Shown in pieces: positions 598 through 14,966 of a stretch of DNA of 20,000 nt. How positions within the stretch are numbered: the first letter of the stretch is position 1; every line of letters starts with the position of its first letter. The stretch covers positions 55,901 to 75,900 of the IMG/VR virus record IMGVR_UViG_3300002071_000003; one strand, given 5' to 3'. Below the pieces are notes generated by a model that was not told the DNA's origin, searched no databases, and saw nothing but the letters and a program-made list of their open reading frames with translations. Both the position numbers and the translations under genes were made by a program. The DNA is from an uncultured virus (IMG/VR IMGVR_UViG_3300002071_000003). Its lineage: Duplodnaviria; Heunggongvirae; Uroviricota; Caudoviricetes.

Positions 598-3500
598 TTA
601 GTAATCTCTATCACTGAGTACTAATAACAGAGTTCTCTCTGATAATCTAAGTATAATTTCCTGTGGTTCTGTTTCTACTATCTTTATTACTATATCATCT
701 AATCTTTCCTGTGGAACTATTAGATCACTTAATACTAATCCTAATGCCACGTCACTTATTATTAGTGTCTTTAGTATGTATTCAAATATTATGTAAACTT
801 GGGCCTGTCCATATCCAGCAGACTTGCTGAATACTGCCTGAGCCTGTGCATAGCCTTCATAAGTTGCCTGAACCCAAACAGCAGATTGGCCGTATACCCA
901 ATCGTAGGTTTGAACCAATGTTTGTGTAGATGCTGCCTGATTAATACCTGACAGTATAACGCTGGCTTCGGCCTGTCCGTATATATTAATAGTTGTCTTA
1001 ACTAATCCTTGGGCGTTAGCTTGTGTCTGATTAATATACAGTCCAAGGATTTGAGTCTGTGCTTGTGCATAACCGCTAGAAACTTGCTTAATTGCTACGC
1101 CACTGTTAGCATATCCCATACCAACAAGGTAAATCTTAGCCTGAGCCTGAGCAACAGCAGGGAACGTTGATCTTATGTGAACGCTGACCTGTGCATAAAC
1201 CTGGCTTATTTGTTTGATTTGTGCTATTGCCTGTGAATATGTCTTATATGTAGTTTTTACTTGCGCCTGTGCTTGTGCAGATGCTTGATAATTCTGCTCT
1301 ATGCTGGTTCGTGCATTAGCACATACTGTGTATGACTGTTTAATATCAGCCAATACCTGTGCTGGCTGAACACTTGATCCGCCGATCCACGCAGATGCTT
1401 GTGTAAATACTAAACTCTTAGCCTTTATATCAGTTTGTGACTGCGTAAATATCTGGCTAATAGCCTTAATTTTAGTCTGCGCCTGTGCATAAGCTGTGTA
1501 GGTAGTTTCTATATCTACCTTTGCTTGTGCAAATACATTATAGGTATGCTCTATATCAGTCTGAGATTGAGCATAAACTGTCTGACCCCAATCTTTAATA
1601 TCGGCCTGTGATTGACCATATCCCTTAACAGCAATGCCCTTAATCTTTGCTTGGATACTTGCTACAACTTGCTTTGTTGTTGTAACTCTTACCCTTGCCT
1701 GAGCAGAAACGTTTTTGCCCCAATCTAGGATACCTGCTTGGCTTTGTGCATAAGTAGTTTGTCCCCAATCCTTAACATCGGCTTGTACCTGAGCATATGT
1801 TGTAATACCAAGAGTCTTTACTCTTGCTTGTGCTTGCGCTAGTCCTAATGCAGAACCACCAATCCACACTGTAGCCTGTGCGTAATGTTGTATAATACTC
1901 TTTATGTATGCTTGTACCTGAGCGTATGCTTTAATTCCAGATACGATATACGCCTGCGTTTGGGCACTAACAACTATATTACTTACTTCAATATAGCCAG
2001 TAGCCTGTCCATAAGATTGATAACTATTTTGGACATTTACCATAGATTGCGCAAATGTATAATATGTTTGACTTATATCAGTTTGTGACTGAGCATATGC
2101 CTGATAAGTTTGTGTAATATCAGCATTAGATTGTGCATAAGACTGATACTGAGTCAAAATAGCTGCCTGTGCTTGACCGCTGCAAACTATATCATTTATG
2201 ACCACTAACGCAGTAGTTTGCCCTGTTTGAGCCGCTGTAACCTTTATATCTGCTTCTGCCTGTCCGTATACCTGTAGACCTGACAGTTGAATGTAGGCAT
2301 TTACTTGCGCCCCAACTAACGAGGATTGCTTGATACTTGTCTGTGCTTGGGACACGGAATAATAACTCTTTTTGATATCTGCCATTGCTTGCGCAACTGT
2401 TTGATATTTTTGATTTACCCATGCTTGTGCTTGAGCTACTACTTGGAAGGTTCTCTTAACATCAGTTTGTGCCTGCGCCCATTGAGGATAATTGAAGGCA
2501 TAAATCTTTACTTGCGCCTGAGCCGATACAGTGGTTCCACTAAAGCGGATATTTGTTATAGCCTGAGCAAATTGTGAAACATTAAATCCAACGATACGAG
2601 AGTTTGTCTGTGCCTGTACTAAGTATGTAGTCTTAACGTCCGCTTGTGCCTGACCAAGTGCTACCGTATTCGTAAACTTGATCCAAGTAGCTGCCTGTGC
2701 ATATACGCGACTTGTAACCTTGATATCGGTTTGGGATAGTCCAGACTGCATATAGTAGGACTTAATATCCGTTTGTGCGTTTGCAGATACCCTACTCTTT
2801 TGTAGGATAGTAGCTAACGCTTGACCGAAGACCTGTTCTGTTACTTTAATGTCAGTTTGAGCAATAGCAAATCCTTGCCCGATTTGCTTTATATCGGCCT
2901 GTGGTTGTGCATATTCCTGTCTACCGGATAAGATAATTTGTGCTTGTGCCTGAGAATTGGCAAATGAAACTGCCTTGATATCTGTTTGGCCCTGTGCAAA
3001 GGCAGTAGATTTAGCCTTAACGTCTACTTGGGTTTGAGCATAAACTGTTTGGCCCCAATTTTTAATGTCGGCCTGAGATTGTGCAAATCCGCCAACACCA
3101 GTACCCTTAATATTTGTAGCTGCCTGAGCATAAACTTGAACACCAAAAGCGTTTATATCAACTTGTGCTTGGGCATATCCAAGAGATGTGGCCTTTATAT
3201 TAACCTGTGTTTGTGCAGATACTAGTGAAGTCTGCTTAATATCAGTCTGAGTTTGAGCAAAGCCTTGACTAAATTGCTTGATATTGGCCTGTACTTGGGC
3301 ATAAGATAATCTACCAGAAAGAATGATTTGGGCATTAGCCTGACCATACCCTATGCCAACTTGCTTAATATCTGCCTGTGTTTGACCGTAAGTTGTTTGC
3401 CCCCAGTCTAGGATATTAGCATTAGATTGGGCATAAATAGTTGTAGTAGTTGCAGCACCCACTATCTGTACTTGTGCTTGGGCGCAAGAAACTAGCCCAA

Positions 3501-6255
3501 CAGTTTTAATCCAAGCAGTAGATTGGGCATAAGACTGTCTACTAGAAAGGATTATCTGTGATTGTACCTGAGCAAATCCTGTAGAAGTAACCTCAATATC
3601 TGTCTGAGTCTGAGCGTATACTGTATTATTGATAACCTTTATCCAAGAATTACCTTGCGCCCAAACCTGACTTGCTACCTTTACATCGGCTTGTGCATTT
3701 ACACTTGCTGTATAAGTTTGCGTGATATCTGTCTGAGTGTCTGCATATCCTTGGTAGGTCTGCTTTATATCTGTTTGCGCCTGAGCGTAAGCGCGTGAAG
3801 CAGCCTTGATATCCACTTGAGACTGTGCAAATACTTGACTGAACTGCTTTACGTCTACTTGGGCCTGTGCAAAGGAAGGTGTATAGCTCTTAATATCAGC
3901 ACAAGTTTGCCCCAACGTTGAGTAAGTAGCCTTAATCTTTGACTGTGTTTGGCCCCAAACTGTAATACTAGTTACCCTGATCCAAGAATTAGGCTGTGCA
4001 TACCCAGTAGAAGTTTGTTTAATATCAGTTTGTACCTGAGCAGATACCAAGGATACTTGCTTGATATCAGACTGTGCTTGAGCGTATGTAACAGCATACT
4101 GCTTTACATCAGTTTGCGTTTGGACAAACGCTTTCTGTACTGTTTTGATATCAGTCTGTGTCTGAGCTTCTGCTTCAATTAGTGTTATCTTTATCCATGC
4201 ATTAACTTGGGCAAATTGCTGTTTAGTAGATAACGCTGCTACAACCTGTGTCTGTGCCTGAGCATTTGCCCGATAGACTGTCTTAATATCAGTTTGGGCT
4301 TGTCCATAGACCTTAGATATAGCCTTAACATCTACATCTACTTGAGTTTGTGCAAAAGCGCCTTCGCAGTAGTCTGTCTGGAAGGCACCATTTTGGAAGG
4401 CATCACTTTGAAATGCACCAGAAATACAAAGTGGATATGTCTGTTTTATATCTGCCTGAGACTGCCCAAAGGTCTGAATGGATGTTCCTCTAATATTAAC
4501 CATAGACTGCGCATAAAACTGTACAGCAAAGGCATTGATCCTAGTTAATGTCTGTCCATAAGTTGTCTGCCCCGTATCCTTGATCCAAGCATTGGCTTGT
4601 GCAAATACTTGAATGCCCCAATCTTTTATGTCCGCTTGTGTCTGTGCATAAACTGTTTGTCCCCAGTCCTTAATATCTGACTGAGTTTGTCCATAAGTAT
4701 AACGTGTAGTCGCAGTAGCAATGGTAATCTGTGCCTGTACCTGAGCAAATGTTGGACTTTGTATTCCACCTATGGCCCCTGCCGTGTAGTGGGCGGCTAC
4801 TGCGGTCGATGATAGGGCCGTGTCGTAGATCGCAACCTCGTCTACGACCCCGTTCATCGGGTTTGCGCCAGCTACCTGAGCCGCGATTGTGACGGCCGTC
4901 TTGGACGGGAAGGTCCTCGCGACGCTGGTGCTATAGGTGCATTCCGCCCCGTCGAAATACATGTGCCGGGCGGCGCCATTCTTGGTGACAACGATGTGAT
5001 GGAAGAACGTCGTATCCATCCAGAAGCCCGCCACGGTATCGAGGCAGGACCCGGTGTATCCGAGGTCGAACACCAGACTGTTGTTGTACGAATAGATTTG
5101 CGCGCCGTGGTCATAGGACAGATAGACGTGGGTTCCACTGCTCGTGGAGTCACGCTTGACCCACATCTCCAGCGTGAACGTGTCCACGATCGCTGGCAGG
5201 GTCGCGACGGTTGCATACTGGGTTGATGCAGCCGCGAACCGGACCGCCGTATCCGAATCGCCAGTTAGGGCTCCGGCCACTCCGAGGGTCGGTGAGTTGA
5301 CATAGGTTCCGGTGGCCGTGGCGATGGCATCGGCCATGCTGGTCCCCGACAACTCACCTTGGCGCCAGTAGGCGATTGGTGAGTCTGCGAGGACCGTGGC
5401 AGAATAAGACGTACCGCCTCTTGGATATGTTTGTTTTATATCTGCTTGGGATTGGGCATAAGTCGTAATATTCCAATCTTTTATGTCTGATTGTGCTTGT
5501 GCTTCTACTTGTCTAGTAGTGGCCACTGCTACTACCGTTGCTTGTGCTTGTGCCCTTACTTCCATATTTTCTAACAGGGTTATCCAAGCAATAGCCCAGG
5601 TAGCAGATGTTCCTAAGGTAACGTTATAGGTTTGGGCGCCAGGTGCAGTAAGTATTTTTGCTTGTGAAGATATACTTTGCCCCGAGGTTGTTGTTCCATT
5701 TGTAGCAGTTTGTGCTGTAGTCCAAGAGCCGTTTGCAGTATCAGAATCATTAGTAAAGGTTTGAGCAGTGCCATACTGATCACCAACTGCACCAATTACT
5801 ATCTGAGCCTTATCAATAGAACTTGTTGTAATAGTTGGTGCAGTTGAGGAACCTGTTGCTGTAGCCCCTGTTTCATAAGCAACATTATTTCCTGCCGCGC
5901 TATCAACTTCTGTTAAGGCCCAAGCTGTAGACCCGACCGTCTTACCTCCGTAAGCTACAGTAATAGTATTTCCTGTAGTTAATGCCCCAACAGACATATT
6001 GGAAGTGAAAATACGCAGTACATTACCAGCACTAGCAGCACCCGGATCATTTAATGCATTCTGTCTAGGTGTCCAAGTATTACCTACAGAGTCGCTTATT
6101 GCTGAATAGGGATCAGCACCACTCGATCCTGCGTTGTCATAACTAATTTCTAGAACAGCCCATGACCCTGCTGTAAAGTTTGATGCCGGTGTTACAACTG
6201 CGGAAGTACCGCTACCTATCCCACCGCTACCCCTATTCGCTGTTGTTAATGCCAT
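598..6255 (-). CDS. Giant repeat protein (putative tail fibre/virion appendage) with an inserted LamG/concanavalin-A-like domain
   Basis: 1885-aa ORF with a ~230-aa Ser/Thr/Gly/Ala-rich N-terminal domain. A LamG-like segment runs from ADSPIAYWRQGE through FTLEMWVK and FHHIVVT...MYFDG to MNGVVDEVAIYDTALS...VAAHY. The remainder is degenerate 13-15 aa repeats of (Y/F)AQ(A/S/T)Q(A/T)DIK. Confidence 0.8.
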   Translation of the reverse strand: MALTTANRGSGGIGSGTSAVVTPASNFTAGSWAVLEISYDNAGSSGADPYSAISDSVGNTWTPRQNALNDPGAASAGNVLRIFTSNMSVGALTTGNTITVAYGGKTVGSTAWALTEVDSAAGNNVAYETGATATGSSTAPTITTSSIDKAQIVIGAVGDQYGTAQTFTNDSDTANGSWTTAQTATNGTTTSGQSISSQAKILTAPGAQTYNVTLGTSATWAIAWITLLENMEVRAQAQATVVAVATTRQVEAQAQSDIKDWNITTYAQSQADIKQTYPRGGTSYSATVLADSPIAYWRQGELSGTSMADAIATATGTYVNSPTLGVAGALTGDSDTAVRFAAASTQYATVATLPAIVDTFTLEMWVKRDSTSSGTHVYLSYDHGAQIYSYNNSLVFDLGYTGSCLDTVAGFWMDTTFFHHIVVTKNGAARHMYFDGAECTYSTSVARTFPSKTAVTIAAQVAGANPMNGVVDEVAIYDTALSSTAVAAHYTAGAIGGIQSPTFAQVQAQITIATATTRYTYGQTQSDIKDWGQTVYAQTQADIKDWGIQVFAQANAWIKDTGQTTYGQTLTRINAFAVQFYAQSMVNIRGTSIQTFGQSQADIKQTYPLCISGAFQSDAFQNGAFQTDYCEGAFAQTQVDVDVKAISKVYGQAQTDIKTVYRANAQAQTQVVAALSTKQQFAQVNAWIKITLIEAEAQTQTDIKTVQKAFVQTQTDVKQYAVTYAQAQSDIKQVSLVSAQVQTDIKQTSTGYAQPNSWIRVTSITVWGQTQSKIKATYSTLGQTCADIKSYTPSFAQAQVDVKQFSQVFAQSQVDIKAASRAYAQAQTDIKQTYQGYADTQTDITQTYTASVNAQADVKVASQVWAQGNSWIKVINNTVYAQTQTDIEVTSTGFAQVQSQIILSSRQSYAQSTAWIKTVGLVSCAQAQVQIVGAATTTTIYAQSNANILDWGQTTYGQTQADIKQVGIGYGQANAQIILSGRLSYAQVQANIKQFSQGFAQTQTDIKQTSLVSAQTQVNIKATSLGYAQAQVDINAFGVQVYAQAATNIKGTGVGGFAQSQADIKNWGQTVYAQTQVDVKAKSTAFAQGQTDIKAVSFANSQAQAQIILSGRQEYAQPQADIKQIGQGFAIAQTDIKVTEQVFGQALATILQKSRVSANAQTDIKSYYMQSGLSQTDIKVTSRVYAQAATWIKFTNTVALGQAQADVKTTYLVQAQTNSRIVGFNVSQFAQAITNIRFSGTTVSAQAQVKIYAFNYPQWAQAQTDVKRTFQVVAQAQAWVNQKYQTVAQAMADIKKSYYSVSQAQTSIKQSSLVGAQVNAYIQLSGLQVYGQAEADIKVTAAQTGQTTALVVINDIVCSGQAQAAILTQYQSYAQSNADITQTYQAYAQSQTDISQTYYTFAQSMVNVQNSYQSYGQATGYIEVSNIVVSAQTQAYIVSGIKAYAQVQAYIKSIIQHYAQATVWIGGSALGLAQAQARVKTLGITTYAQVQADVKDWGQTTYAQSQAGILDWGKNVSAQARVRVTTTKQVVASIQAKIKGIAVKGYGQSQADIKDWGQTVYAQSQTDIEHTYNVFAQAKVDIETTYTAYAQAQTKIKAISQIFTQSQTDIKAKSLVFTQASAWIGGSSVQPAQVLADIKQSYTVCANARTSIEQNYQASAQAQAQVKTTYKTYSQAIAQIKQISQVYAQVSVHIRSTFPAVAQAQAKIYLVGMGYANSGVAIKQVSSGYAQAQTQILGLYINQTQANAQGLVKTTINIYGQAEASVILSGINQAASTQTLVQTYDWVYGQSAVWVQATYEGYAQAQAVFSKSAGYGQAQVYIIFEYILKTLIISDVALGLVLSDLIVPQERLDDIVIKIVETEPQEIILRLSERTLLLVLSDRDY

Positions 6256-6393: not shown

Positions 6394-6867
6394 CTATCCG
6401 CTTATTCCCATTCTTCCATCAGAGAATAAGGAAATTAGCATTTTTACGTTACGCCCACCATATTCTTCGGGGGTTGTAGTTTGTAGGCCAATAATCTTAG
6501 CTGGAACCCCTGCCGTAACCCTAGTAAACCAAATAGGTCTAAACTGTAAAGGAATAAAAGTATTAACATAATCCCCCTTAGCATCAGCCTCAGAAGGCTC
6601 TATGTTCATTAATTCCCCCACTACGTTTGTTTCCTCGCACAAATAGAGCACCGTTCTTGGGTTCTGTATCTCTACAGTACCGTTCTGAATGTTCCAAGCA
6701 TCATAACCAATAATAACGACACCATTGAGCAAATCAACAGCGACTTTTTGATTAAAGTCCTCCTGAAGTATGAACTTCAGGTTTCCCTCTTCGCCTTGTT
6801 GTACGGGTCTTCCGTCCTGATCCTCGTGGAGTATCTGATCCTGCTTCGTTATCGCTGTCCATCCCAT
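6394..6867 (-). CDS. Hypothetical protein
   Basis: 157-aa ORF with globular-looking composition and GAGGAAAAGG upstream of the ATG. It overlaps the 3' end of the upstream ORF. Confidence 0.75.
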   Translation of the reverse strand: MGWTAITKQDQILHEDQDGRPVQQGEEGNLKFILQEDFNQKVAVDLLNGVVIIGYDAWNIQNGTVEIQNPRTVLYLCEETNVVGELMNIEPSEADAKGDYVNTFIPLQFRPIWFTRVTAGVPAKIIGLQTTTPEEYGGRNVKMLISLFSDGRMGISG

Positions 6868-8311
6868 CTACCTTTTCCTCCGGTTTCTTCTCTTCCCACT
6901 CTTGGGGAATTGGTCCCCATATTCTTTCTTCTGGCTTACCTATGAAGTTAAACTTAGGTGATTCCCTACCAGCGGCCACTAATTGGATATCCTTAACAAC
7001 TTCTTCTTCTGTCATAGGGCGTTCCTTAGGGTCGGGATATATTGCCATTGGCCACCAGTTAGGTGATTGAGGTCCAGATTCCATACCCTCAGGGGTTATG
7101 TTATCTATCTCTGGATGACTTACTTTCTTGGCGCGAAGTTGAATACTCCAAGCATCAGGGCTAGGATTTCCAAATACTTCTGCCCCTTCGCTTACCTCTA
7201 TATCTTCAAAACATCCTAAGCTTTCAACTAGCATTCGAAGAGATTTAGGAGTAAATCCTGCTGCGTGGAAGTTCTTAGCATAATCCTGCTCACCATATAG
7301 CACCCAGTAGTCTGTAGGATACATTTGGTCTATAGCCATCCTATATCCGACATGCCTTAGGTTGGGAACAATTAGTCTTAATTCCCCACCAACTTTTAGG
7401 ATTCTAACCCACTCTTTAAGAACTTTTTGAACGTCATTGAATCCAAAATGTTCAAGTGTGTGAGAACTATATACAATATCAAACGTTTGATTTGGTACTG
7501 GTAGATGACGAACATCGCAAACTACGGTTGGGTTTAATTCCTCTCTAATATCAAATGAAACTACATTTCCCTCATCCCGCATATACGGGGAGACTGGGCC
7601 AGCCCCAATATCAGCAATTAGCTTTTCCCCTGCTGGTAGGATTTCCCATCCAGCATGAGCCTGTGGAGCATTAGCAGGAATTCCAAACATGACCTTCGAA
7701 TTCTTTTCAAAGTGAAATGCCTGGACCGCTGTATCTGCCCAAACCTTATATCCAGCTTTCTTAGCCTTCCAATAAAAGTACAAGTCTTCTGTATTATTAA
7801 CAGGTGTTTCCTTTACCCCCGCAAAAGAAGCGTAGTCTACAGAGTACCAAGGTCCCCCCAGTTCTTTCTGTATCTTTCGATAAACATCTGTCTTGACTAA
7901 AGTTAGCCCACTACCAGCAGCATCTATCTCAATTAAATCCCCTACGTGCCAGTTATAATAAGGGCCATCAAAATGTCCTCTAAAAAGAAGAGGCATTGGA
8001 GGATTAGACTTAGACCAATATACCCCATTTATAATATCCTTGTGCTGATTGAACAGTCTTAAAAACGAATCAGGGGGCGCAATTACATCATCGTCTAACC
8101 AATAAATGTAATTTGCCCCCTGACTTAGTGCAAACTCTACAATCTCGTTTCGTGCATCAGCAATCGGCTTATTCAACACGATCTTATCTATAGCACTTGA
8201 AACAAGTGGAAACTGTTGAGATAATCTACTTTGGAGGAAGTATGTACTTACCATTCCAAAAGACGGAATTCCGACAACTACGTTTAATCCATAGGTGTTA
8301 TTTGCTACCAT
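6752..8311 (-). CDS. Glycosyltransferase (GT-A/GT2-like) fused to a class I SAM-dependent methyltransferase
   Basis: N-half has IADARNEIVEFAL...ANYIYWLDDD (DxD), AAGSGLTLVKTDVY and TEDLYFYWKAKKAGYKVWAD. C-half has IADIGAG (motif I), CDVRHLPVPNQTFDIVYSSHTLEH and VLKEWVRILKVGGELRLIVP. Confidence 0.88.
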   Translation of the reverse strand: MVANNTYGLNVVVGIPSFGMVSTYFLQSRLSQQFPLVSSAIDKIVLNKPIADARNEIVEFALSQGANYIYWLDDDVIAPPDSFLRLFNQHKDIINGVYWSKSNPPMPLLFRGHFDGPYYNWHVGDLIEIDAAGSGLTLVKTDVYRKIQKELGGPWYSVDYASFAGVKETPVNNTEDLYFYWKAKKAGYKVWADTAVQAFHFEKNSKVMFGIPANAPQAHAGWEILPAGEKLIADIGAGPVSPYMRDEGNVVSFDIREELNPTVVCDVRHLPVPNQTFDIVYSSHTLEHFGFNDVQKVLKEWVRILKVGGELRLIVPNLRHVGYRMAIDQMYPTDYWVLYGEQDYAKNFHAAGFTPKSLRMLVESLGCFEDIEVSEGAEVFGNPSPDAWSIQLRAKKVSHPEIDNITPEGMESGPQSPNWWPMAIYPDPKERPMTEEEVVKDIQLVAAGRESPKFNFIGKPEERIWGPIPQEWEEKKPEEKVDGMDSDNEAGSDTPRGSGRKTRTTRRRGKPEVHTSGGL

Positions 8312-10710: not shown

Positions 10711-10940
10711 GGGTGTGAATTATGACTATTACGGGCACGGCTCTCTTTAATATCTTCTAGAAACATATCTACTATCAAACCTAATGCAAAGGTAGCCATA
10801 ATTAGCGCTGCGACAAAGATCACATACCCAAATAGTTCTTTACCCAGTATAAGAATTGCTAACCCCGGAATACCTAGTATAATTGCTACAGGTATAGCGC
10901 CTAAAACAAAGATTCGTAATCCCTTTAATATGCGTCTCAT
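10704..10940 (-). CDS. Small membrane protein (two predicted TM helices)
   Basis: Likely start is ATG 10940 (MRRILKG..., GGAGAG RBS), followed by two hydrophobic stretches. The longer ORF-track version runs through tRNA genes. Confidence 0.7.
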   Translation of the reverse strand: MRRILKGLRIFVLGAIPVAIILGIPGLAILILGKELFGYVIFVAALIMATFALGLIVDMFLEDIKESRARNSHNSHPC

Positions 10941-10960
10941 CTTCTCTCCAAATAAAAAAT

Positions 10961-11035
10961 TGGCGGGGGAGGTAGGATTCGAACCTACACTACGCGGTTC
11001 CAAAGACCGCTGCATTACCATTATGCTACTCCCCT
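10961..11035 (-). tRNA. tRNA-Gln(UUG)
   Basis: Anticodon arm GCGGT-CTTTGGA-ACCGC, D arm GCAT-AATGGTA-ATGC, T arm GTAGG-TTCGAAT-CCTAC, G73 then CCA. The 1:72 pair is mismatched. Confidence 0.9.
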
Positions 11036-11046
11036 GCGAAAAAGTT

Positions 11047-11120
11047 TGGCTGGCACGGGTGGATTTGAACCACCATATCAAGGTTAACAGCCTAGCGTCC
11101 TACCATTGAACGACACGCCA
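11047..11120 (-). tRNA. tRNA-Asn(GUU)
   Basis: Acceptor TGGCGTG/CGTGCCA, anticodon arm CTAGG-CTGTTAA-CCTTG, T arm GGTGG-TTCAAAT-CCACC, G73 then CCA. Confidence 0.92.
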
Positions 11121-11123
11121 ACG

Positions 11124-11270
11124 ATTAGTTATAGAGAGGATTAGATGACTTCGGGATGCGCGTCCCCGCGTGGGTTAGGTTGCCAAGCCTACTTATTAGA
11201 GGCGTACGACATTTTATAATTGGTGTTAATATGTTGAAGTATCCGAAACCGTCACTACCCATAAACTAAT
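11124..11270 (-). ncRNA. Y-like RNA copy 6 (long non-tRNA insert)
   Basis: AUUAGUUUAUGGG-UAGUGAC-GGUUUCGG-AUACUUC-[~80 nt]-CCGAAGUC-AUCUAAUCCU-CUCUAUAACUAAU. Same scaffold as the other five copies. Confidence 0.7.
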
Positions 11271-11381
11271 TATAACTATAAGGGCTTATAAAATGTTACA
11301 GGTTACGTAGTCCTGTTGCCTCGGTAATAATTCATTACCCCTCCGCTCGCAAGCACGTAGGCCGTTACAAAATTAAATTAG

Positions 11382-11503
11382 ATTAGAGAGAATTTGCTGT
11401 GCCAGAAAACACGAGACTTTCATCCCGTTTGCAGGGGGTTGAACCTTGCTGATGTAACCGAAGCTACTGTAACCGAAGTATCTGAACACTTCACTGCTCT
11501 AAT
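11382..11503 (-). ncRNA. Y-like RNA copy 5 (reduced tRNA-like insert)
   Basis: AUUAGAG-CAGUGAA-GUGUUCAG-AUACUUC-[UUCG hairpin, T-arm-like hairpin, 7-bp GAAA hairpin]-CUGGCAC-AGCAAAUUCU-CUCUAAU. Confidence 0.75.
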
Positions 11504-11517
11504 ATAAAACGCAAATT

Positions 11518-11652
11518 AAATAAGGAGAATTAGTCGCTATTGGATATTTAGCGTGTTACCATTACACCCATCCCCCATGACGGAGGATAAGGGATTCGAA
11601 CCCTTTACTCTTCATTAAAAGTGAAGTAACCAACGGCTGCACTACCTTATTT
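11518..11652 (-). ncRNA. Y-like (YrlA-type) RNA copy 4, permuted tRNA-Lys(UUU) mimic
   Basis: AAAUAAGG-UAGUGCA-GCCGUUGG-UUA-[CUUCA-CUUUUAA-UGAAG]-AGUA-[AAGGG-UUCGAAU-CCCUU]-[AUCCUCC-GUCAU-GGGGGAU]-GG-[GUGU-AAUGGUA-ACAC]-...-CCAAUAGC-GACUAAUUCU-CCUUAUUU. Confidence 0.88.
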
Positions 11653-11889
11653 ACTTGTTATTTGGCCTTTAAAGAAGCTACCTACTATACCTAATAGAAG
11701 TGCTATACCTATTCCTTGCGCCCAACTAATAATTGGGAACTGAAATAGTCCTACTAACAGCCAGTTCCATAGCAAGGTTATTACCCCGCCGATCAGTCCT
11801 AAATATAGAACCAAGAACAGAACTACCGCTATCAGCATTGCTAGACAAGCTGTCCCAGTATAATTCTTAGTTTTAAACGTACTCTTCAT
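11647..11889 (-). CDS. Small membrane protein
   Basis: Likely start is ATG 11889 (MKSTFKTKNY..., GAGGT RBS), giving 80 aa, mostly hydrophobic. The longer ORF-track version overlaps tRNA-Glu. Confidence 0.72.
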   Translation of the reverse strand: MKSTFKTKNYTGTACLAMLIAVVLFLVLYLGLIGGVITLLWNWLLVGLFQFPIISWAQGIGIALLLGIVGSFFKGQITSK

Positions 11890-11900
11890 TTGTACCTCTT

Positions 11901-11976
11901 TGGTAGCCCAACAGAGAATCGAACTCTGATCGGCAGAGTGAAAATCTGCAATCCTCAACCGTTAGACGATTGGGCC
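11901..11976 (-). tRNA. tRNA-Glu(UUC)
   Basis: Acceptor GGCCCAA/TTGGGCT, anticodon arm GCAGA-TTTTCAC-TCTGC, T arm CAGAG-TTCGATT-CTCTG, CCA. Confidence 0.92.
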
Positions 11977-11982
11977 AAAATT

Positions 11983-12126
11983 TATTAGGAGAATTTGGTC
12001 GCGTAGGCTTTTTTACTGGCCGCTGCTCTAACACTGAGCTATTCCCCGGCGATTGTTCGGGGAAGAGAGAATTGAACTCCCGACATGCGGCTCCCATGAA
12101 GAAATCCTATGCTTCACTACCTAATA
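11983..12126 (-). ncRNA. Y-like (YrlA-type) RNA copy 3, permuted tRNA-Pro-like mimic
   Basis: UAUUAGG-UAGUGAA-GCAUAGG-AUUUCUUC-AUGGGA-GCCGC-AUGUC-[GGGAG-UUCAAUU-CUCUC]-[UUCCCCG-AACAAUCGC-CGGGGAA]-UA-[GCUC-AGUGUUA-GAGC]-A-GCGGC-...-CCUACGC-GACCAAAUUCU-CCUAAUA. Confidence 0.9.
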
Positions 12127-12139
12127 CTAGGTTCTAAAT

Positions 12140-12227
12140 TTATCTAGGAGGATTTAGTGGCTCTGGCTTTTTACAAAAGACATTTTGAAGTTTTTAGAAG
12201 TATCCAAAACCTTCACTACCTAGATAA
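12140..12227 (-). ncRNA. Y-like RNA copy 2 (minimal)
   Basis: UUAUCUAGG-UAGUGAA-GGUUUUGG-AUACUUC-[30 nt AU-rich]-CCAGAGCC-ACUAAAUCCU-CCUAGAUAA. Confidence 0.8.
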
Positions 12228-12240
12228 TATAATATTCAAT

Positions 12241-12314
12241 TAATCGGAGAATTGGGTCGCTTAGAGTTTGGTTTTCATTTCAAGAGAAGTATCTCTAAAC
12301 TTCACTGCCGATTA
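12241..12314 (-). ncRNA. Y-like RNA copy 1 (minimal)
   Basis: UAAUCGG-CAGUGAA-GUUUAGAG-AUACUUC-[19 nt]-CUCUAAGC-GACCCAAUUCU-CCGAUUA. Confidence 0.8.
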
Positions 12315-12316
12315 TA

Positions 12317-12511
12317 TTATTCTGCTCTATCTACGTAACTTGTGTTGTCCAAGCCACGATGAATATCAGCCACTAATGAATTCGCTAGTGACCAAAGATG
12401 TTTTGCGTTCTCCTGAATGTTATCCTCTTTACGAAGAATCTTAAAGGCTTCTACAACTTCTTTGGCTCTATCGGTTGCTGCCGTTACCGTTTTTGAATCG
12501 GGGGTTTCCAT
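12317..12511 (-). CDS. Hypothetical helical protein
   Basis: 64-aa ORF with AGGAG RBS, located between the Ro60 gene and the ncRNA array. Confidence 0.65.
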   Translation of the reverse strand: METPDSKTVTAATDRAKEVVEAFKILRKEDNIQENAKHLWSLANSLVADIHRGLDNTSYVDRAE

Positions 12512-12714
12512 TTTAATCTCCTATTATATTGCTAGCTTAGTCCGGCTCGTCTAGCTTGATCCTTTAACAGCCCCTTATCGGTGACGACCACGGCGGATCA
12601 ATTGTTTGATATTTTGGGTGGGCTGACTGTTCACCAGCCTGTACCAGCCTGTGAAATCGTACAGGGGATTACTCCAACGTACGACCACGCTCTACAGCGG
12701 TAGCACCCGCGATA

Positions 12715-14298
12715 TTACCACTTATTAATGTGCTGCTCCATAACATTGTTCTCCACAATGTTCATGTAATCGATGATCTTGTCTGACCACCCATTGACCA
12801 AGATAACGTTCTTAGACTTGTTTGGAGTCTGACGTGTTCCATACGAACTAACATCAAGAGAGTATAGATACGCATTTCTATTTACTTGCGCCAAGTAGTT
12901 CTTCCATTCCTCATTCACAAACGAATCTGTGTACCAAGGATAGGTTGTTCCAAAAATTCCGGCCTTGCTCTGACTTTTTTCGGTATTGTAACACTGCATG
13001 TCAGAGACAAGCACGATACGATCTACCTTGATCTTGTTATCAGTCAAAATCTTGAATGCAAGTCCAGCGTTTGTACTGTGACCGACATTTGTATTTACAA
13101 TTTTATCGATGTTGGTGATCATAGTATCGTCAGGATTTACCATGATTCTACGCGCAGTCTGACCGAAGCCGATAACTACAGATTCCTTAGCCTTCTTGGT
13201 AACGATTGCCCCAAGAACGGCCGCAACTTCTGCATTTGTCACCTTAGACTTTTCGGACACTCGCGCTCCTGTCATAGACCCTGAAAGGTCCACAAGAACC
13301 GCTGTACTTCCACCAAGCGTAACATTAGAGATAGACAATTCAAAAGCCTTAGCGATTGCTCGCATAATGCTCTGATTCTCAATTTCCTTATACGCAGAGT
13401 AGAATCTATATGGTAGCTGCTTAGACTTCTTTACAGCGTCCTCATCTGTAATTCGCGCAAGGATAGGATCAAGAGTTACACCCTTTTGGTCAAAGTTACG
13501 CAAGTTACGTAGCAATGCCATATATCCCATCTTAGGAGCGATTAACTCCCAAGTTTCCTTAGACGAACCAAACTTGGAGATGAAAGATTCCCAAGTTACT
13601 GCTCCACCGTTTACAAGGGCCTTTGCCTCAACATCCAGTGTATCCTTTGCAAGCAACTGCTTTAGTGCTGCAATCTTTGGCAATGCTTCTGCGTCAACAA
13701 CATCGTTGACAAGATAGTTTCGCATAGCCTTGGAAACAGGATATCCTTCCTTACGGTAAATAAGATTGAGCACATCACCTAGAGAAACTGCTCCCTTATC
13801 AGAATCATATTTATTCAATTGGTATTCGTCAAATGTAGCGAAGGCTGCTGCCAAACCCTTTTTTAGGGCATTTGGAATAGGCTTTCCATGTGTAGACAAC
13901 TGGTAAGCGATAACACCGCTCAATTCATCTGCACGCTTTACAATCTTAGGAGTATACTCACGAATAAATGGCTTACACTTTTCAATGTTAGCCGCCTCCA
14001 CAAGCAAGACCTGTGGGGTTGTTCGGAGATAAATCTCGTTACGAGCATATGCAGCCAACTGGAGAATAAACTTCGGATTAACTGCTGCTACTTCACGGAT
14101 ATCCTTTACAATCTCTGCGGCAATCTTATCTCCGCTCTTGTAGAAAGTGTCCTCACTCCAAAAGGCTCCAAGAACACGTTCAATTAGGCGATCCTTAGCA
14201 GGAAGCTTCCATGCTACTGCGGCCTCTTCATTAAGAGTCACGTTTTCGGGATCAAGGGACTGTAAGGTTACTGCTGTCTTTGTATTTAACTTAACCAT
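12715..14298 (-). CDS. rsr: Ro60/Rsr-type RNA-binding protein (TROVE domain plus vWA domain)
   Basis: TROVE motifs EDTFY, YARNEIYLRTTP, RADEL, FDEYQLNKY, TWE, MGYMALLRNLRN and SKQLPYRFYSAY. vWA MIDAS motif DLSGSM...STN...SDMQ. 527 aa. Confidence 0.95.
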   Translation of the reverse strand: MVKLNTKTAVTLQSLDPENVTLNEEAAVAWKLPAKDRLIERVLGAFWSEDTFYKSGDKIAAEIVKDIREVAAVNPKFILQLAAYARNEIYLRTTPQVLLVEAANIEKCKPFIREYTPKIVKRADELSGVIAYQLSTHGKPIPNALKKGLAAAFATFDEYQLNKYDSDKGAVSLGDVLNLIYRKEGYPVSKAMRNYLVNDVVDAEALPKIAALKQLLAKDTLDVEAKALVNGGAVTWESFISKFGSSKETWELIAPKMGYMALLRNLRNFDQKGVTLDPILARITDEDAVKKSKQLPYRFYSAYKEIENQSIMRAIAKAFELSISNVTLGGSTAVLVDLSGSMTGARVSEKSKVTNAEVAAVLGAIVTKKAKESVVIGFGQTARRIMVNPDDTMITNIDKIVNTNVGHSTNAGLAFKILTDNKIKVDRIVLVSDMQCYNTEKSQSKAGIFGTTYPWYTDSFVNEEWKNYLAQVNRNAYLYSLDVSSYGTRQTPNKSKNVILVNGWSDKIIDYMNIVENNVMEQHINKW

Positions 14299-14400
14299 TC
14301 TTCCTTACCTCAATTCTGTTGCTATCCAGATAATTATTTGGGGCGGTCTGCCCGGTTGCAGAACTGTTTGCGCATTTCCTAGGAAGCCAAAGCGCCCCAA

Positions 14401-14541
14401 TTATTCAGTTTTCTCTTTCGGAGAGAAACGGCCTTTTTTCTTTGTCGAAATGGGCTTTGGAACAGCCCTTGGTGGACTTAGCGGTTTTTCCCAAGGCTGT
14501 AATTCCCTTTGTTTGAAGGCCGTGCCCTTCACTTCTTGCAT
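14401..14541 (-). CDS. Small basic Pro/Lys-rich protein (46 aa)
   Basis: Below the track cutoff. MQEVKGTAFKQRELQPWEKPLSPPRAVPKPISTKKKGRFSPKEKTE with RBS AGGAAAGGTG. Confidence 0.55.
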   Translation of the reverse strand: MQEVKGTAFKQRELQPWEKPLSPPRAVPKPISTKKKGRFSPKEKTE

Positions 14542-14583
14542 AGTACACCTTTCCTACGGCGAGGTTCAACTTTTTGATTATTT

Positions 14584-14657
14584 TGGTGGACCCACAGAGA
14601 ATCGAACTCTGATTTTATCGGTGCAAACGATATGTTCTCCCATTAAACTATAGGCCC
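14584..14657 (-). tRNA. tRNA-Ala(UGC)
   Basis: Acceptor GGGCCTA/TGGGTCC with the G3-U70 identity pair, anticodon arm TATCG-TTTGCAC-CGATA, A73 then CCA. Confidence 0.93.
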
Positions 14658-14659
14658 AT

Positions 14660-14736
14660 TGGAGGCATCGGTGGGATTCGGACCCACGTAATCCGGTTTT
14701 GCAGACCAGCCCTTTAAGCCGCTCAGGCACGACGCC
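14660..14736 (-). tRNA. tRNA-Cys(GCA)
   Basis: Acceptor GGCGTCG/CGATGCC, anticodon arm CTGGT-CTGCAAA-ACCGG, U73 then CCA. T loop is TCCGAAT. Confidence 0.92.
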
Positions 14737-14966
14737 TAGTAGTGTGAATTTGGATTTGGATACATTGGTACAGCATATGTTTGATCAGGCTTATTTAAAT
14801 CCTTAAAAGGATAGGTTAGTCCCTCCCTTAAACACTCTTCTACAACTTGATTAGCGTAGAATTCTGCTTCTTCCATGTACCAAATATACTCTCTATCTTT
14901 TATATGCTCTTTAAGAGCACCTACTAATATGTTTTTAGCAGATTTATAAATTGTATAGGTATCCAT
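14736..14966 (-). CDS. Hypothetical protein
   Basis: 76-aa ORF directly abutting the upstream ORF stop. Confidence 0.6.
   Translation of the reverse strand: MDTYTIYKSAKNILVGALKEHIKDREYIWYMEEAEFYANQVVEECLREGLTYPFKDLNKPDQTYAVPMYPNPNSHY

Follow-up and report, generated by a model that had tools for sequence, protein, structure and literature searches.

We identified, in a 20,000-nt stretch of DNA from an uncultured virus of the class Caudoviricetes (IMG/VR record IMGVR_UViG_3300002071_000003, positions 55,901 to 75,900; hereafter, the window), six related elements that are very probably genes for Y RNAs, the non-coding partners of the protein Ro60; two of them (elements 3 and 4) are of the YrlA type and the other four (1, 2, 5 and 6) carry other effector modules. 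All six lie on the minus strand, 0.4–1.6 kb downstream of the stop codon of a Ro60 gene on that same strand, as described for bacterial and phage Y RNAs, which occur within 4 kb of Ro60 and in the same orientation (Chen et al. 2014; PMC4201824). The assignment is based on the conserved structure of the elements, on covariation, on linkage to and co-orientation with Ro60, and on one family member that is identical to a published YrlA. An earlier note on the window, made from the sequence alone, had placed six elements downstream of a gene with TROVE and vWA domains; this is confirmed, and R1, a covariance model of the shared structure, finds exactly these six.

The Ro60 orthologue (12715–14298, minus strand; 527 aa) combines a TROVE ring domain with a vWA domain that carries a DxSxS motif of the MIDAS type, i.e., the HEAT-repeat ring and the C-terminal vWA domain with MIDAS that characterise Ro60/Rsr proteins. 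It matches the Pfam families TROVE (2.8e-34), vWA_Ro60 (1.2e-7) and DUF7788 (3.6e-7), and PHROG 850, “RNA-binding protein” (3e-53). The nearest solved structure is that of Ro60 from Thermus phage phiLo (9KOP/9L5Y; E 4.2e-27), to which residues 20–438 align, including the DxSxS motif (DLSGS); Rsr of Deinococcus radiodurans (2NVO) is the second structural match (E 1.9e-7).

Structure of the six elements

One plan is common to all six elements. A terminal stem, P1, is followed by one spacer base, the motif AGUGNNG and an inner stem, P2, of 8 bp, made up by the last G of the motif and seven further bases; after P2 come WUACUUC (UUUCUUC in element 3), a variable insert of 19–90 nt, the 3′ strand of the inner stem (P2′), a loop of 10–11 nt ending in UYCU and the 3′ strand of the terminal stem (P1′), for a total span of 74–147 nt. 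The earlier note had outlined this succession of P1, motif, P2, variable domain, P2′ and P1′, and it can be read in every copy. An RNA of about 80–130 nt with paired ends that form a stem, together with a variable loop module, is the general structural hallmark of Y RNAs, and both the stem and the module are present in all six.

The word AGTGAAG-N7-ATACTTC occurs seven times in the window when up to two mismatches are allowed (the six minus-strand elements plus one plus-strand overlap of element 1), against a chance expectation of 0.19; none of 200 shuffles reached seven. Chance repeats are rejected by these word-count shuffles and by the R1 scores. In each copy, 12 to 14 of the 14 modelled pairs are standard pairs, while the strands of different copies, when mixed in 30 combinations, form 8.2 on average and 11 at most. 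Since mixed-strand pairing is so much lower, the stems can be said to differ among copies and yet to pair within each, which bears out the earlier note on this point. The pairing is not perfect throughout: P2 has one mismatch or bulge in elements 3, 4 and 5, and P1 of element 6 is broken by an internal loop. Lowest-energy folds of single sequences often break P2, and such folds were not relied on.

R1 comprises 14 base pairs and was trained on an alignment of seven elements (A4), namely, elements 2 and 4 of the window and five from relatives. A 17-element MAFFT alignment (A2) was dropped because its 3′ halves were shifted, and an 11-sequence alignment (A3) because the tRNA-like inserts would have become model positions; a first scanner, which combined a regular expression with pairing, was too permissive (545 versus 370 matches on the two strands) and gave way to a stricter one and then to R1. 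With filters off, R1 returned exactly six matches in the window, at 32.2–78.9 bits, among which the four elements outside the training set scored 32.2–49.8 bits (E 3.7e-7 to 3.5e-12). The seventh-best match had 11.9 bits (E 0.25), and the whole 75.9-kb record yielded the same six matches only, with no seventh copy.

The elements, all on the minus strand, are numbered from the Ro60 gene onwards. Y RNA 1 (12241–12314) consists of the shared module, or handle, and a single-stranded insert of 19 nt with UUGAAAU, and represents a short-loop class (R1 49.8 bits, E 3.5e-12 at 12242–12313, outside training; 14/14 pairs). Y RNA 2 (12140–12227) has a 30-nt A/U-rich insert (78.9 bits at 12143–12224, a training sequence; 14/14 pairs) and a positional counterpart in the related locus L118 (6675–6756). 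In Y RNA 3 (11983–12126; 40.7 bits, E 1.4e-9 at 11984–12125), which is YrlA-like, the handle leads into a 5-bp connecting stem, a T-arm, a closed acceptor-like hairpin of 7 bp, UA and a D-arm. This is the order found in YrlA's tRNA-like domain, given as T-arm, closed acceptor-like stem and D-arm (PMC4201824), with a T-loop UUCAAUU and the UA before the D stem. Y RNA 4 (11517–11653; 68.5 bits at 11520–11650, a training sequence) has the same order after an anticodon-arm-like hairpin, which has a 7-nt loop and uses CUUC of the conserved motif: a T-arm (loop UUCGAAU), a 7-bp closed acceptor-like hairpin and a D-arm with GG in its loop; GG replaces UA before the D stem. Y RNA 5 (11382–11503; 32.2 bits, E 3.7e-7 at 11383–11502; 13/14 pairs) carries, above a bulged P2, an insert of 69 nt with several hairpins, one of them T-arm-like (7-nt loop UUCAACC). 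In Y RNA 6 (11124–11270; 40.3 bits, E 1.9e-9 at 11130–11263; 13/14 pairs), P1 is composed of an outer stem of 7 bp, the internal loop and an inner 3 bp, and the 81-nt insert is not tRNA-like. The tRNA-like effector domain of YrlA is thus absent from elements 1, 2 and 6, and element 5 has only the T-arm-like hairpin; the earlier expectation of tRNA-like payloads in part of the set, with four of another kind, agrees with this. True tRNAs are rejected: neither ARAGORN nor the Rfam tRNA model at its gathering score calls any of the six, and the partial Rfam tRNA match of element 4 (24.8 bits, model positions 8–63) is below the 29-bit cut-off.

Linkage to Ro60 and covariation of the stems

A scan for close relatives of the Ro60 protein returned only the window's own contig, and a DNA-level search of a phage collection gave tRNA-sized matches only; the protein search yielded a Ro60 clade that is 51–96% identical to the window protein, with many members on contigs of 105–124 kb. 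We retrieved 80 viral loci with an alignment of 40 proteins of this clade, each with Ro60 on the plus strand; together with the window and locus L051, they form a survey of 81 sources (851 kb), which was searched with R1 at E ≤ 0.01. R1 matched 144 times, in 54 of the 81 sources; 143 matches share the strand of Ro60 and one has the opposite orientation. In the loci with full 5-kb flanks, every match (97/97) was no more than 1,620 nt away from the Ro60 match. The tie between Y-like RNAs and the Ro60 gene that had been claimed for the window thus extends to its relatives. The gene order Ro60, three Y RNAs, tRNA-Glu, further Y RNAs, tRNA-Asn and tRNA-Gln is kept in L118, L121, L122 and L124.

As a stringent control, R1 was run on 100 viral loci (445 kb) that contain an exact 14-base word from the 5′ part of the elements, mostly by chance. 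Matches occurred in only six of them. Ro60 was detectable by tblastn in four of 116 word-bearing loci (L027, L047, L051 and L063), and all four are among the six with R1 matches; for the two others, the flanks are too short for a verdict (one has 621 nt, the other meets a contig end). Co-occurrence with TROVE genes, a check that the earlier note had called for, is therefore seen in four of the six R1-positive control loci, the other two being too short.

Among 80 loci of cellular Ro60 genes, 21 contain R1 matches, 31 in total and without exception on the strand of Ro60; the carriers of the module include Lentzea, Streptomyces, Rhodococcus jostii and Myxococcales, among others. Ro60 and R1-type RNAs adjoin about 13 to 21 tRNA genes in three of these loci, on contigs of Catelliglobosispora (L282), Phytohabitans (L217) and Polyangiales (L208), which may be tRNA-array islands or prophages. 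Rfam also detects tmRNA genes in the tRNA/Ro60/Y RNA neighbourhoods of phages: at 3041–3389 of L128 (119.5 bits) and at 8305–8616 of L288, Bacillus phage G (67.6 bits).

Covariation is strong in both helices. Among the 116 distinct sequences, 96.6% of the pair cells hold standard pairs versus 55.5% with shuffled partners, a value reached in none of 500 shuffles, in an alignment that was fitted to the model and with five of the seven training sequences coming from the surveyed loci. The covariation score is 1.03 versus 0.23 after shuffling, only 39–48% of the cells are paired when partners are slid by 1–3 columns, and double-sided changes are found at 14 of 14 pairs. The covariance model and these covariation counts, which follow the lines of the checks proposed earlier, speak in favour of the structure.

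The conserved motifs

In the Y RNAs of bacteria and phages, Chen et al. (2014) describe the motif GNCGAAN0-1G, situated close to the 5′ end and proposed to contact Ro60, and a conserved YUAY that opens the variable region (PMC4201824). AGUGNNG in the window occupies the same place, directly 5′ of the inner stem; its copies read AGUGAAG (four elements), AGUGCAG and AGUGACG, with U in place of the canonical C in all six, and relatives read AGCG, UGCG or GGCG in the column of the window's AGUG. The UAC of UACUUC corresponds to the published YUAY and its conserved UA. It looks, from these alignments, as if AGUGNNG were a lineage variant of GNCGAAN0-1G. Accordingly, the earlier view of the handle as new does not seem to hold: it appears to be the published GNCGAAN0-1G/YUAY module in a U-variant form. 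The combination of a constant handle with swappable payloads was likewise already published as the modular architecture of Y RNAs, in which Ro60 contacts the stem made by the ends and effectors attach to another module (Wang et al., preprint; 10.1101/312249).

The 4-base core of the motif is identical in 118 of 153 same-locus pairs versus 1,837 of 6,750 between-locus pairs. In the window clade, it is uniformly AGUG (33/33 elements, from the window, L118, L119, L121, L122, L123 and L124), and other lineages have their own variants: AUUG in L137, L138 and L146, UGCG in L163 and L183, UGUG in L182 and L172, and GGCG in L151. Uniformity within a genome fits one shared partner per genome, and the variants suggest co-evolution of the core with each genome's Ro60; the U form in the window handle probably reflects a co-adapted protein.

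Relation to YrlA and points that weigh against the assignment

The R1 match at 3477–3610 of locus L286 coincides with the published YrlA of Caulobacter phage CcrColossus, listed in the supplementary table of Chen et al. (2014) as JX100810, 108824–108959 (L286, 3477–3612; PMC4201824). The six elements therefore very probably belong to the YrlA/YrlB lineage. YrlA has been reported from 254 bacteria and 22 phages, with Salmonella Typhimurium and Mycobacterium smegmatis among the bacteria (PMC4201824).

Several observations weigh against the assignment of the six elements as Ro60-binding Y RNAs. The z-scores of single-sequence folds are modest (−0.74 to −2.92). The training of R1 on the window clade, and the use of an alignment fitted to the model for counting pairs, are both biased towards the structure. 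A change of C to U in the CGAA of a mimic of phiLo Yrl2 raised the dissociation constant about three-fold (PMC12135203), and recent duplication could partly account for the uniformity of the motif within loci. A promoter and terminator scan of 10800–14800 found sites no more frequent than in shuffled sequences. Finally, no element reaches the gathering score of the Rfam YrlA family (RF02553; 69 bits); element 3 scores 30.9 bits and the others have no match. Sub-threshold RF02553 matches also occur in nine of 14 control genomes, so the 30.9 bits of element 3 weigh little by themselves; the same search revealed no bona fide YrlA locus in the control genomes.

The last of these points concerns the Rfam model itself. 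The published CcrColossus YrlA is also under the RF02553 threshold (29.9 bits), as are all elements in 26 other loci; RF02553 thus appears too narrow for the phage members. At gathering thresholds, Rfam finds nothing but tRNAs in the window; 14 viral and 12 cellular loci yield only tRNA, tmRNA, one tRNA-Sec and one glycine riboswitch, and neither YrlA nor Y_RNA. The comparison with Rfam suggested in the earlier note is hence settled: no element matches an Rfam Y RNA family at its gathering score. As the Rfam YrlA model misses phage Y RNAs, annotation pipelines leave such regions blank or call spurious open reading frames (ORFs) in them.

Copy number and insert classes

More than one Y RNA per locus is known from bacteria, with at least two in each of three studied species and four small RNAs upstream of rsr in D. 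radiodurans, and the supplementary table of Chen et al. (2014) gives one YrlA per phage (PMC4201824). In our survey, R1 finds at least three copies in 21 of the 81 sources and at least five in nine. Six copies occur in L121, L119/L120 and L128/L129, and five in L118, L124 and L146; such counts are lower bounds for distant lineages, as R1 was trained on the window clade. CcrColossus (L286, 2741–3934; JX100810) has seven tandem matches upstream of its TROVE gene gp139, only one of which (3477–3610) is listed in the 2014 table; two annotated “rho-independent terminators” lie inside this array. Arthrobacter phage Atuin has five R1 matches and crAss phage cr112_1 three; for Bacteroides phage crAss001, two such RNAs are predicted in addition to the permuted one described below.

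The copy number had earlier been taken to go beyond anything known. That holds in part only: several Y RNAs per locus have been published, and five to seven copies are present in other phages, but our literature search, of limited coverage, found no paper on more than two Y-like RNAs beside a phage Ro60 gene, and six tandem copies exceed any number that we found described there. Both the modular design and loci with more than one Y RNA are published; the copy number of the array and the diversity of its inserts would be new.

The inserts of the 116 distinct elements measure 13–169 nt (median 53.5), and 38 of the elements include a perfect T-arm-like hairpin. In related phages, particular classes of insert return at corresponding places of the array, among them a short UUGAAAY loop, a T/acceptor/D form in which P2 ends in GGA and is followed by UUUCUUC, and a form with T-arm and acceptor only. 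This recurrence argues that the copies are not redundant, and conservation of the classes by array position offers a comparative handle on the effector modules. The word UUGAAAY is common to short-insert elements (window 12265–12290; L122, 6665–6738; L124, 6582–6651; L119, 7199–7267); the rest of the single-stranded loop is not conserved, and the word may be a site at which an effector binds. Inside other R1 elements, ARAGORN calls a tRNA-SeC(UCA) (L122, 7411–7480) and a tRNA-Lys(CUU) (L121, 7455–7526), so tRNA finders can misannotate tRNA-like inserts of Y RNAs.

We also observed a circularly permuted, tRNA-shaped Y RNA in L063 (minus strand, about 3157–3030; the same contig as L125), in crAss phage cr112_1 (L198, 5609–5750; MT774388) and in Bacteroides phage crAss001 (L287, 5702–5845; MH675552). 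It starts with an open acceptor stem of 7 bp and a D-arm; the anticodon arm is replaced by P2′, a loop ending in UUCU and a short P1 closed by a loop, after which come the motif (UAGUG or UGGUG), P2, UUACUUC, a variable-arm hairpin, the T-arm and the 3′ acceptor strand. The form matches the Rfam tRNA model at 50.2 and 46.6 bits with an insertion of about 70 nt, is unannotated in both crAss records and draws no ARAGORN call.

By R1, tandem arrays are common beside phage Ro60 genes. Cultured carriers of the module (CcrColossus, Atuin and crAss001) are direct test systems for expression, Ro60 loading and phenotype.

Genomic setting

The source record measures 75.9 kb and is 63% complete according to CheckV; the identical sequence is also present on a 117-kb viral contig. 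The surroundings of the array are a region of replication and nucleotide metabolism, with a family A DNA polymerase, ThyX, a primase and a fragment of ribonucleotide reductase, and all nine tRNA genes that ARAGORN detects in the window are on the minus strand. On that strand, Ro60 is followed by a 203-nt non-coding stretch, a 64-aa ORF, elements 1 to 3, tRNA-Glu, an 80-aa ORF, elements 4 and 5, a 111-nt spacer, element 6, tRNA-Asn and tRNA-Gln.

The 203-nt stretch (12512–12714) is, by eye, richer in G+C than its surroundings and outside the repeat family: it has no R1 match and no meaningful Rfam match, and its fold z-score is −0.61. The 64-aa ORF next to it (12317–12511, minus strand), located between Ro60 and Y RNA 1, matched no Pfam or PHROG family. 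In the relative L118, the first Y RNA begins 9 nt past the end of the Ro60 match and the 203-nt stretch is absent; with only 9 nt at that place, the two segments in the window look like an insertion. G+C-rich spacers resembling 12512–12714 separate the Y RNAs of L051.

The tRNA-Glu(UUC) gene (11901–11976, minus strand; called by ARAGORN, Rfam tRNA 55.6 bits) lies 6 nt after Y RNA 3, a position that it also has in L118, L121, L122 and L124. The 80-aa ORF (11647–11889, minus strand) specifies a small membrane protein (PHROG 2169, “membrane protein”, 1.6e-8 when translated from 11892), and its stop codon falls within P1 of Y RNA 4. Between Y RNAs 5 and 6, the 111-nt spacer (11271–11381, minus strand) contains the word AGCGGAG followed by a 6-bp hairpin; it lacks UACUUC, gives no match to R1 at E values up to 10, and could be the remnant of a further copy or a small hairpin without relation to the family. 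Immediately behind Y RNA 6 come tRNA-Asn(GUU) and tRNA-Gln(UUG) (10961–11120, minus strand; called by ARAGORN, Rfam tRNA 58.8 and 66.2 bits), a pair that also ends the array in L118, L121, L122 and L124.

Elsewhere in the window, a 1885-aa ORF (598–6255, minus strand) matched no PHROG family, and a 519-aa ORF (6752–8311, minus strand) has a glycosyltransferase-like N-terminal part and a weakly tRNA-methyltransferase-like part. The only, tentative hint at the host is that three R1 matches accompany a 62%-identical Ro60 on a contig of 7.8 kb, which was binned with a Flavobacteriaceae genome; the next-closest cellular Ro60 proteins carry Patescibacteria names.

Proposed mechanism and alternative explanations

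Transcription and processing of the array, the binding of each copy by Ro60 and the effector roles are what we infer from the observations above. Ro60, the six RNAs and three tRNAs are arranged head to tail on one strand and would probably be transcribed as one precursor, to be cut by host nucleases that process tRNA and other RNA; this proposal of a single operon is drawn from gene order, given that the promoter and terminator scan did no better than shuffles. A precedent for co-processing is the single precursor of YrlA and YrlB described in M. smegmatis (PMC4201824). In each RNA, the end pairing P1, the internal loop formed by AGUGNNG and the UYCU-ending strand, P2 and the UACUUC junction would constitute the Ro60-binding module. 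The variable insert would be the effector module, which either links the ring of the phage Ro60 to different host factors, for example exoribonucleases (PNPase and the like) or tRNA-recognising enzymes, or gates the ring; a role as tether and gate has been published for D. radiodurans, and a tether to host PNPase has been proposed for phiLo (10.1101/312249; PMC12135203). All six RNAs may be loaded on one Ro60 and serve as decoys, tethers or guides. Going further, we tentatively put forward, as a possibility of rather low probability, a combinatorial adaptor set, in which one ring is used with up to six or seven interchangeable Y RNAs, each of which would guide Ro60, at an early stage of infection, to a host enzyme or defence factor of its own. 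If so, the array would be a device for multi-target host takeover or counter-defence and not a series of redundant copies, and the permuted form of crAss-like phages would belong to the same set, as a member that is processed and possibly CCA-tailed.

The Y RNAs could instead function mainly in counter-defence, as decoys or sensors for defences that target tRNAs or degrade nucleic acids, or as recruiters of tRNA repair, and not as tethers of the PNPase type; we think this rather unlikely too, about on a par with the adaptor set. The interleaving of the array with phage tRNA genes, here and in relatives, and the fact that Arthrobacter phage Atuin and Bacillus phage G have Ro60 embedded in tRNA clusters are coherent with such a role. 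So are reports that the Ro60-like gp130 of phage Bas63, encoded upstream of tRNA genes, counters the defence system Ppl (10.1101/2024.10.10.617714), that the TROVE gene of crAss001 is early (PMC8375218), and the discussion of jumbo-phage TROVE proteins as an RNA-repair platform with a tRNA-like partner (PMC7824862). Nevertheless, the window proteins that were scanned included no defence or repair factor (RtcB, Pnk, ligase) encoded next to the array, the link between gp130 and Ro60 is a structural one only, and tRNA-like inserts are limited to two of the six.

Two further explanations would deprive the shared module of its meaning for Ro60, or most of the copies of their activity. The module might be a cassette for processing or folding of the phage tRNA operon by host nucleases, its adjacency to Ro60 being mere synteny, since no more than a few bases separate the elements from neighbouring tRNA genes and parts of the handle resemble tRNA positions 8–25, drawing partial matches to tRNA models. 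We give this very little credence: the module accompanies Ro60 in distant phages and in cellular genomes, upstream or downstream and even without an adjacent tRNA (L051), it appears in the control set where Ro60 is present, and one member is the published YrlA. A core that is uniform within and variable between genomes, moreover, fits a genome-encoded partner better than conserved host RNases. Hardly any more probable, and if anything slightly less so, is that the copies are decaying duplicates of one YrlA or of a tRNA-derived repeat, with only one or two active. Elements 5 and 6 do have the lowest scores and imperfect stems, and a single YrlA per phage is given in the published table (PMC4201824), but the stems vary and still pair, with compensatory changes at 14/14 pairs family-wide, the loop motifs are constant while the inserts are unrelated, and phages that share only 54–78% identity in Ro60 have retained the same array positions and insert classes. 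The assignment of the elements as Y RNA genes and partners of the phage Ro60 remains the one that we prefer.

Comparison with known Y RNA systems

Metazoan Y1, Y3, Y4 and Y5 and Yrn1 of D. radiodurans share with the window RNAs a modular build of a terminal stem, with the Ro60 site (predicted in the window), and a variable loop module. Vertebrates have two to four Y RNA paralogues per species, which differ in their loops, according to published descriptions. The metazoan Y RNAs are transcribed from separate polymerase III genes and not from a tandem array; neither they nor Yrn1 have a detectable sequence relation to the window elements, and a permissive scan of 11000–12800 gave no Rfam Y_RNA match.

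Closer to the window RNAs are Yrl1 and Yrl2 of phage phiLo, two phage-encoded Y-like RNAs beside a phage Ro60 gene, which were picked by CGAA words in the upstream non-coding region; phiLo Ro60 binds its Y-like RNAs and host PNPase in vitro (PMC12135203). In phiLo (L197; MH673673), R1 matches 4995–5060 and 5186–5265 (17.8 and 20.1 bits), immediately downstream of Ro60. Both matches have UACUUC and a 3′ loop ending in CUUUCC, and they read AGGCCYRG, without a CGAA word; the annotated 78-aa ORF phiLo_25 contains the second match and is partly overlapped by the first. They appear to differ from Yrl1 and Yrl2, set apart by the published description of the latter, and would thus be unreported candidates.

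YrlA resembles the elements in its location near Ro60 on the same strand, its paired ends, the purine-rich motif 5′ of the inner stem and the UA at the junction, and it shares with elements 3 and 4 an effector module of T-arm, closed acceptor-like hairpin and D-arm. It differs by the motif, GNCGAAN0-1G versus AGUGNNG in the window, and by having one tRNA-like copy, where the window has two; element 4 departs further from YrlA by the extra anticodon-arm-like hairpin in the position of the variable arm. The exact role of YrlA and its effector are described as still open (10.1101/312249).

RNAs of the YrlB/Yrn2 type in S. Typhimurium, M. smegmatis and D. radiodurans share the Ro60-binding motif and the locus with YrlA; they are described as being without the full tRNA-like domain, some with a possible T-arm or a small loop (PMC4201824). 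By its description, elements 1, 2, 5 and 6 fit this type. Systems of the YrlB type have one such RNA, whereas the window has four non-YrlA RNAs, with unrelated inserts of 19–81 nt.

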